Positions 63,505 to 64,000 of a stretch of 64,000 bases of DNA are shown one piece after another (the stretch's first letter is position 1; each line of letters opens with the position of its first letter). The stretch is from Escherichia coli (GTDB lineage Bacteria > Pseudomonadota > Gammaproteobacteria > Enterobacterales > Enterobacteriaceae), in NCBI RefSeq assembly GCF_003334305.1, contig NZ_QOWS01000002.1. One strand, given 5' to 3'. The position numbers were made by a program, and so were the translations under genes. The notes under the pieces are model-generated. The model searched no databases. It saw nothing but the letters and a program-made list of their open reading frames with translations, and was not told the origin of the DNA.

Positions 63505-63510
63505 TTCCAG

Positions 63511-63538
63511 ACGCGCCATCGTTAGATGGCGCTTTTTA
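63511..63538 (+). terminator. intrinsic terminator after ydcL
   Basis: GCGCCATC-gtta-GATGGCGC-TTTTT. Confidence 0.7.
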
Positions 63539-64000
63539 TCCGGTGCGCCGTAAAACCCCATCCTTCAGGGCGGGGATATAAGGCGCGGTTTTCCACCTGA
63601 CCAGGTGTTTGCTGTTGTTCAATGTATTGGCGGATGACGGATATTGGCGCACCTCCGCAGCTACTGGCAAAATAGCCAGGACTCCACAAAACGCCTTTGT
63701 AGTAATACCTGACTGCAATATCTGGTCGATCTCGTCGCAGTAACCTACTCGATACGCCTTTGAGGCTGTTTACCAGACTGGATATCGCCAGTTTGGGAGG
63801 TTAGTTAATTAACAAATGGACGTGATCTGGTTCGCCATCCATTTCAACCAGTTCAGCTTCAAAATAAGCACATACATTTGAAAAGTAAGTGCGTAGTTTT
63901 TCTGTCGCGTCAAAAAATCTGGCGTCGGTATCTGGTGACAAAGACCAGGTGAACATGCATCAGGAAAACACAATGCCTTCCACGCCGGATATCGGTTTCT
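63522..64000 (-). pseudogene. IS200/IS605-family Y1 (HUH) transposase TnpA, disrupted; 5' end beyond window
   Basis: Minus-strand translation reads ...HVHLVFVTRYRRQIF, then after a +1 shift at the A6/T6 run (63912-63917) DATEKLRTYFSNVCAYFEAELVEMDGEPDHVHLLIN, in-frame TAA (63801-63803), then PPKLAISSLVNSLKGVSSRLL...RYYYKGVLWSPGYFASS...VIRQYIEQQQ...; this parallels IS200 TnpA (YHIVFAPKYRRQAF ... DHIHMLLEIPPK ... FWCRGYYV ... IQDYIKHQ) as I recall it. Confidence 0.6.

Follow-up and report, generated by a model that had tools for sequence, protein, structure and literature searches.

IS608, a Helicobacter pylori element and the mechanistic model for the IS200/IS605 family of insertion sequences, is cleaved 3' of the sequence TTAC, at a point 19 nt 5' of the foot of its left hairpin; at the other end, TCAA lies 10 nt 3' of the foot of the right hairpin, and a 4-nt guide stands directly 5' of each foot, the left one being AAAG (PMC3201880). 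ISDra2 of Deinococcus radiodurans is a relative in another host, with another gene order than the element discussed below. E. coli has a member of its own in IS609, which is annotated in K-12 MG1655 as a mobile element of 1748 bp (1503161-1504908) carrying the pseudogene yncK (b4578) and the tnpB gene insQ (b1432). The K-12 yncK contains a stop codon and is without transposition (PMC2891674), and mutation-accumulation lines have yielded zero IS609 insertions (PMC5009759).

In what follows we look at the last few hundred nucleotides of one stretch of E. coli DNA, 64,000 nt long, which we call the window. Our main reading, to which we give a probability of about 0.95, is that we have here the left end of the insertion sequence IS609 (IS200/IS605 family), which lies between the convergent genes ydcL and ydcO, and that positions 63540-64000 are its left 461 bp, up to where the window stops. 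An IS609 remnant with a dead transposase is already known at this place, being annotated both in K-12 and by PGAP, and what is gained here is mainly a correct annotation: the element starts at 63540, its target is TTTAT, its left-end hairpin is at 63556-63575, and the terminator beside it belongs to ydcL. As to the last of these points, a stop codon of the transposase reading frame sits in the loop of that terminator, and much of the argument below turns on how it came to be there.

Identity of the element

Near the end of the window the plus strand carries tehA, tehB and ydcL, and past the ydcL stop the minus strand carries most of a transposase gene:

63502-63504, plus strand: stop codon (TAG) of ydcL
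63600-64000, minus strand: body of the tnpA pseudogene (yncK of K-12), codons 8-143, recognised by Pfam Y1_Tnp and by the PGAP note
63913-63933, minus strand: N-terminal motif RYRRQIF
63807-63827, minus strand: DHVHLLI
63816-63824, minus strand: the HUH motif (His-Val-His), which aligns to solved Y1 transposases
63615-63632, minus strand: RQYIEQ, within IRQYIEQ
63624-63626, minus strand: codon of the catalytic Tyr, in RQYIEQ

The K-12 annotation has IS609 at the same locus with the same left boundary, its start lying 36 nt past the ydcL stop, which is window position 63540. Over the 601 nt from 63400 to 64000, many complete E. coli chromosomes match the window at 100%; in such strains PGAP gives the order ydcL, tnpA, insQ (the last as an RNA-guided endonuclease of the TnpB family), and in one of them it notes of tnpA "IS200/IS605 family transposase; frameshifted; internal stop". 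At the nucleotide level the element is 97-99% identical to complete IS609 copies with a tnpA that PGAP calls "IS609 family transposase", and a query spanning the ydcL-IS609 junction is covered to at least 80% in 3259 of 5426 complete E. coli genomes (~60%).

Sequence past position 64000 was taken from the near-identical strain KSC207 (locus L001), which agrees with the window at 100% over 63400-64000 and shows 13 mismatches over the last 6.6 kb, and the whole element, extended in this way, was searched against E. coli genomes for copies and empty sites. From KSC207, the far end of the element falls at about window-equivalent position 65282, giving a length of 1743 bp here and of 1748 bp without a deletion described below. 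The first 23 nt of tnpA are outside the window, and its ATG would be at 64021-64023. The preliminary description of this DNA had allowed for a tnpB past the window, and near-identical strains do carry one just beyond the edge, namely an intact insQ of 402 aa whose start is 7 nt from that of tnpA on the opposite strand. The two genes are divergent and, read by extension from these strains, they form the tnpA-plus-tnpB layout of the IS605 group. The copy is like that of K-12 in its site, its ends, its divergent tnpA and tnpB, a CAG at codon 144 and a G-to-A change in the left hairpin; the K-12 insP/insQ locus, with which a comparison had been proposed, is in fact this same place, IS609 with yncK and insQ.

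The transposase coding on the minus strand is split over two frames. Once conceptually repaired, the window ORF matches Pfam Y1_Tnp (PF01797) over model positions 1-121 of 121 with E=3.8e-39, a significant outcome for the search by which the preliminary description had proposed to judge its claim, and it scores 138 bits against NCBIfam transpos_IS200 (NF033573), where the cutoff is 55. Solved Y1 transposases (2F4F, 2EC2, 2A6M and 2XM3, with those of Sulfolobus, IS608 and ISDra2 among them) match at E values of 1e-17 to 1e-20; for the Y1 HUH TnpA of IS608 (2A6M) the value is 8.7e-20 and for TnpA of ISDra2 (2XM3) it is 1.6e-17. A further C-terminal motif, SPGYFASS, is present in the minus-strand translation. 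With the Y1_Tnp match and the PGAP pseudogene note in hand, the earlier identification of an IS200/IS605-family tnpA pseudogene stands, and its HUH, N-terminal and C-terminal motifs, its A6 run, its TAA and its stop are all where they had been placed.

Ends, target and insertion site

The left end of the element can be read directly from the window:

63535-63539, plus strand: TTTAT, the IS609 target and, by analogy with IS608, the left cleavage sequence (from five insertion sites and an empty site)
63552-63555, plus strand: AAAA, candidate left guide tetranucleotide, which would pair with the TTAT cleavage site (by analogy with IS608)
63556-63575, plus strand: left-end subterminal imperfect palindrome CCCCATCC-TTCA-GGGCGGGG, 20 nt, a repeat of the right-end hairpin

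IS609 begins with CCGGTGCGCC at 63540, directly 3' of TTTAT, and in the copies compared it always finishes with GGATGTCAA, in TCAA. Five independent sites have TTTAT right beside the left end: ydcL, tetR near ytfB, yajI, gltX/yfeD and a pepT site on a plasmid, where the copy is a miniature derivative. Copies at other loci match from TTTAT to TCAA only, and the 3' flanks of the five sites are unrelated to one another. The target is not duplicated; that is, an empty site is simply flank, TTTAT and flank, and at ydcL/ydcO in strain CFSAN067215 it reads GCGCCATCGTTAGATGGCGCTTTTTAT|TATCGGTTTCTG (TTTTTAT|TATCGG at the junction). When E. coli genomes were searched with the element, IS-free strains matched over no more than 35 nt, those between the ydcL stop and the end of TTTAT. 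The TTTAT at this locus is the tail of the T-tract of a pre-existing ydcL terminator, and IS609 adjoins the terminator because that T-tract supplies its target. A second case, at gltX/yfeD, supports the view that terminator T-tracts often supply TTTAT.

The element has no terminal inverted repeats and, in the manner of the IS200/IS605 family, has a subterminal hairpin at each end. The right one, CCACGTCC-TTCA-GGGCGTGG (L001 7854-7874), is an 86% direct repeat of the left, and the two end sequences both fold as hairpins in the same orientation. IS609 and IS608 share these imperfect subterminal hairpins, a mode of insertion in which the element lands 3' of a fixed short sequence and duplicates nothing, a right-end TCAA 10 nt past the hairpin foot and a candidate 4-nt guide 5' of the hairpin. 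They differ in gene order, tnpA and tnpB being divergent in IS609 and co-directional in IS608; in target, which is (T)TTAT in the one and TTAC in the other; and in the distance of the left cleavage site from the hairpin foot, which is 16 nt, counted from TTAT|, as against 19 nt.

If IS609 works as IS608 does, it would move as a single-stranded circle, by "peel and paste". Both hairpins would be bound by a dimeric transposase of the Y1 HUH type, which would cut at TTAT| and TCAA|, and the cleavage sites would be read by base pairing with the 4-nt guides 5' of each hairpin; a pairing of AAAA with TTAT is just what the AAAG/TTAC pair of IS608 would lead one to predict. The left hairpin of the present copy may be a poor one for this purpose. 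Position 63560 is A in all ydcL-locus copies and G at the other loci, and the 28-nt left-hairpin fold is put at -3.9 kcal/mol (z -0.9) with A as against -7.5 kcal/mol (z -3.0) with G, so that the G-to-A change is predicted by folding to weaken the stem and roughly to halve its stability. Rfam, run on the element and on window positions 60000-64000, returned nothing at gathering level, and no curated RNA family therefore accounts for either hairpin; sub-threshold matches to HgcC, sot0042 and RAGATH-18 fell at the 3' end of insQ.

Some features of the surroundings may be set down here. The genes ydcL and ydcO converge at a distance of about 30 nt, and IS609 has split the ydcO stop, a TAA that spans the insertion point in the empty site (L003 1535-1537); in the presence of the element YdcO is longer by one Tyr and terminates at a TGA in the closing TCAA (L001 7880-7885). 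In strain 2013C-4465 (gltX/yfeD, L016 260-305), IS609 stands directly after a terminator-like hairpin and T-run, CGGCAGG...CCTGCCGTTTTTTATTTAT.

A stop codon in a terminator loop

Three features are needed for the question of the stop:

63513-63539, plus strand: ydcL intrinsic terminator, in the chromosomal flank outside the IS (from a terminator scan, folds and the empty site)
63522-63524, minus strand: TAA, first in-frame stop of the read-through ORF, in the terminator loop
63597-63599, minus strand: codon 144, the family stop position, here CAG (Gln)

The terminator hairpin, GCGCCATCGTTAGATGGCGC, consists of a perfect 8-bp stem, GCGCCATC/GATGGCGC (63513-63532), around a 4-nt loop, GTTA (63521-63524), and is followed by TTTTTAT. 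The terminator scan picked it up as terminator-like, and it folds at -16.2 kcal/mol as RNA (z -3.1) and with z -6.0 as DNA. The TAA is inside the loop, exactly as the preliminary description had it, and falls 5 codons outside the element.

What, then, is a stop codon of a transposase gene doing in the loop of a terminator? One answer, towards which the preliminary description leaned in relating the hairpin to the family's habit of using hairpins at element ends, is that the element put it there: the hairpin at 63513-63532 would be an end hairpin of the element, with the tnpA stop set in its 4-nt loop by design, and IS200/IS605 elements do, after all, use subterminal hairpins (PMC3201880). We consider this answer very improbable. 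In the IS-free strain CFSAN067215 the stretch past the ydcL stop, 35 nt that contain the hairpin and finish with TTTAT, is identical and leads straight into ydcO; copies of IS609 at four other loci have no common sequence to the left of TTTAT, and the hairpin is absent beside them; and the K-12 annotation leaves it outside IS609. For these three reasons the hairpin is chromosomal, and the comparison with the empty site and with other copies already refutes that answer. It is, besides, the other hairpin, at 63556-63575, that the right-end repeat matches, and orthologous TnpA proteins stop 25 codons sooner. More improbable still would be that there is no defined element here at all, and that the likeness to transposases is chance or a degraded relic without real IS boundaries. 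The disabling lesions described below are all that can be said for this, and they weigh little against a full-length Pfam match at E=3.8e-39, precise ends repeated at five loci and 97-99% nucleotide identity to complete IS609 copies. We read the locus, then, as the end of a true IS609 beside a chromosomal terminator of ydcL, in which the stop in the loop is a coincidence of the insertion site and not a feature of the element. The TAA at 63522-63524 is the operative stop of this copy's read-through ORF; the name "natural stop", which it had been given, does not suit a codon outside the element when the family stop position is at 63597-63599.

Loss of the stop at codon 144

The ORF reaches the terminator loop because codon 144 is CAG in the E. 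coli lineage. Among 15 sampled E. coli IS609 copies, 14 have CAG there (G at 63599), with all four sampled chromosomal loci represented, and only one, that of strain 118, has TAG. We considered TAG at codon 144 as the normal state of IS609 in E. coli and rejected it as the majority state on this count (1/15), although it is kept in other genera. The orthologous proteins of Salmonella, Proteus, Photorhabdus and Morganella measure 138-146 aa and end in QQQTPG or QQETPS, and structural alignments with solved Y1 transposases end near residue 140-145. The family thus ends tnpA at codon 144, a stop that IS609 of E. coli has lost.

With CAG at codon 144, an intact copy would be read through the left end of the element into whatever flank it had landed in. 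The read-through runs for 20 codons through the left end, hairpin included, and then for 5 codons of flank, which at ydcL add Ile-Lys-Ser-Ala-Ile before the TAA. In other words, IS609 of E. coli has no tnpA stop within its own ends, and the encoded C-terminal tail differs from one insertion to the next. Among public sequences are an uninterrupted 168-aa ORF from the ydcL site, with the ending HRIKSAI (P0009), and a variant of 213 aa with a mutated loop TAA (P0001); read-through ORFs that run out in other flanks measure 173, 204 and 224 aa.

Might the lack of a stop be a working feature of IS609 in E. coli? The TnpA of a master copy would then have carried about 20 extra residues encoded by the element as well as a site-specific tail, and the fact that 14 of the 15 copies, at four chromosomal loci, have CAG at codon 144 means that stop-less copies have evidently spread. 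Uninterrupted ORFs of 168, 173, 204, 213 and 224 aa are, moreover, common in public data, and we assume that TnpA of IS608 likewise has a tail beyond its catalytic helix. Against this, mobility could have come in trans from a copy that has TAG, like the one in strain 118, and all orthologues outside E. coli keep their stop. We think a working, longer TnpA unlikely, if by no means far-fetched; the corollary that the loop TAA has been a genuine stop ever since insertion, its place in the loop still an accident, is likewise one that we entertain only tentatively.

Decay of tnpA

Measured against the intact 143-aa tnpA copy of strain 118, the window differs in three ways: a 5-bp deletion, a change of TAT to TAA at codon 76 and CAG for TAG at codon 144. 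Two of these disable the gene:

63912/63913, minus strand: junction of the 5-bp deletion (TGGTC on the plus strand, GACCA on the coding strand; codons Asp38-His39)
63801-63803, minus strand: nonsense TAA in place of Tyr76 (TAT in intact copies), from alignment and translations

The preliminary description had seen a +1 frameshift in an A6/T6 run at 63912-63917. The reading frame does change there, and that much holds, but the homopolymer is not the cause. Slippage was considered and rejected because intact copies, which align as GCGTCA-TGGTC-AAAAATC, have A5 preceded by TGGTC; it was the 5-bp deletion that made the A6 run. The in-frame TAA at 63801-63803, also held to be disabling, proves on alignment to intact copies to replace Tyr76. 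Neither lesion is peculiar to this strain, the exact deletion allele being the best match in 672 of 4919 records and the exact 57-mer with the TAA in 1018 of 4999.

Other ydcL-locus copies of tnpA have lesions of their own:

K-12, BL21, C9, 22-250 and ETEC4088: Leu96 to TGA
EC7518: Leu96 to TGA and Arg33 to TGA
D5: 1-bp deletion and Glu62 to TAA
O121:H19: the codon-76 TAA only

IS609 of K-12 thus has Leu96 changed to TGA and keeps both Tyr76 and the 5 bp, whereas the window lineage has lost the latter two and keeps Leu96. With a 5-bp deletion and a nonsense codon at Tyr76, tnpA of the window lineage is, on its sequence, dead, and this copy would no longer be able to supply a TnpA enzyme of its own; since a weakened left hairpin is added to the frameshift and the nonsense codon, we predict that it is inactive.

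InsQ after the loss of the transposase

The partner gene tells a different story. Over the same 10 strains, the 432 nt of tnpA show 6 independent disabling events and insQ (1209 nt; L001 6632-7840, with L005-L013) shows 0, its 402-aa ORF being intact in all 10 of the ydcL-locus copies sampled. Were disabling events spread evenly over the nucleotides, all 6 would fall in tnpA with a probability of ~3e-4. The variant alleles of insQ in these strains are 24 non-synonymous and 16 synonymous, against an expectation of ~3.5:1 (binomial p=0.012), a deficit of amino-acid changes relative to neutrality, and pairwise pN/pS among the 10 copies is ~0.34. The decay of tnpA has thus come about independently in several lineages, with insQ staying intact, which suggests that selection may have kept insQ after tnpA died. 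The larger proposition, that IS609 at ydcL/ydcO has been immobilised and that its TnpB has been selectively retained since the death of the transposase, we put forward as a long shot. If it were true, the role of InsQ and its guide RNA here could be host-level or addictive, going past the service of a transposon that has lost its mobility.

As a protein, InsQ matches TnpB of ISDra2 (8BF8/8EXA) over nearly its full length, with E=2.6e-55 for 8BF8. In the alignment to its top structure match, 9yyg, the stretches GLDAG, IEDL and DVNGA are visible, which we take to be the RuvC motifs. The guide RNA would be expected to end in TATCGGTTTCTGTCAG, with TTTAT as the predicted TAM. A literature search on insQ, or TnpB, of IS609 found nothing specific.

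Other observations

Upstream, the 300-nt tehB-ydcL spacer holds a strong hairpin of the 19-bp class at 62694-62737 (as RNA, -25.4 kcal/mol, z -5.4), about 160 nt past the tehB stop and followed by GAAAAAUUUAUUU. It has no match in Rfam and could be a terminator or some other element.

An exact 12-nt sequence, ATATCGGTTTCT, occurs at 63989-64000, in the 5' region of tnpA, and again at L001 7883-7894, where its first letter is the final base of the right end and the rest is ydcO flank, the stretch in which the guide of the TnpB RNA is expected. As a self-targeting guide it was rejected, since the internal copy is preceded by CCGGA and not by TTTAT, and since these 1.8 kb hold a further exact 12-mer repeat (D10) that is unrelated to it; ATATCGGTTTCT is probably repeated by chance.

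Reduced forms of IS609 also exist. On plasmid pOONT76_3 of strain 126 (L017 301-598) there is a miniature of ~298 bp, preceded by TTTAT and composed of IS609's left and right ends only, which makes it a non-autonomous, MITE-like relative. In WP4-S17-ESBL-03, at yhgE/hslO (L018 601-2059), a left-truncated IS609 has lost its left end and most of tnpA, and its insQ is intact.
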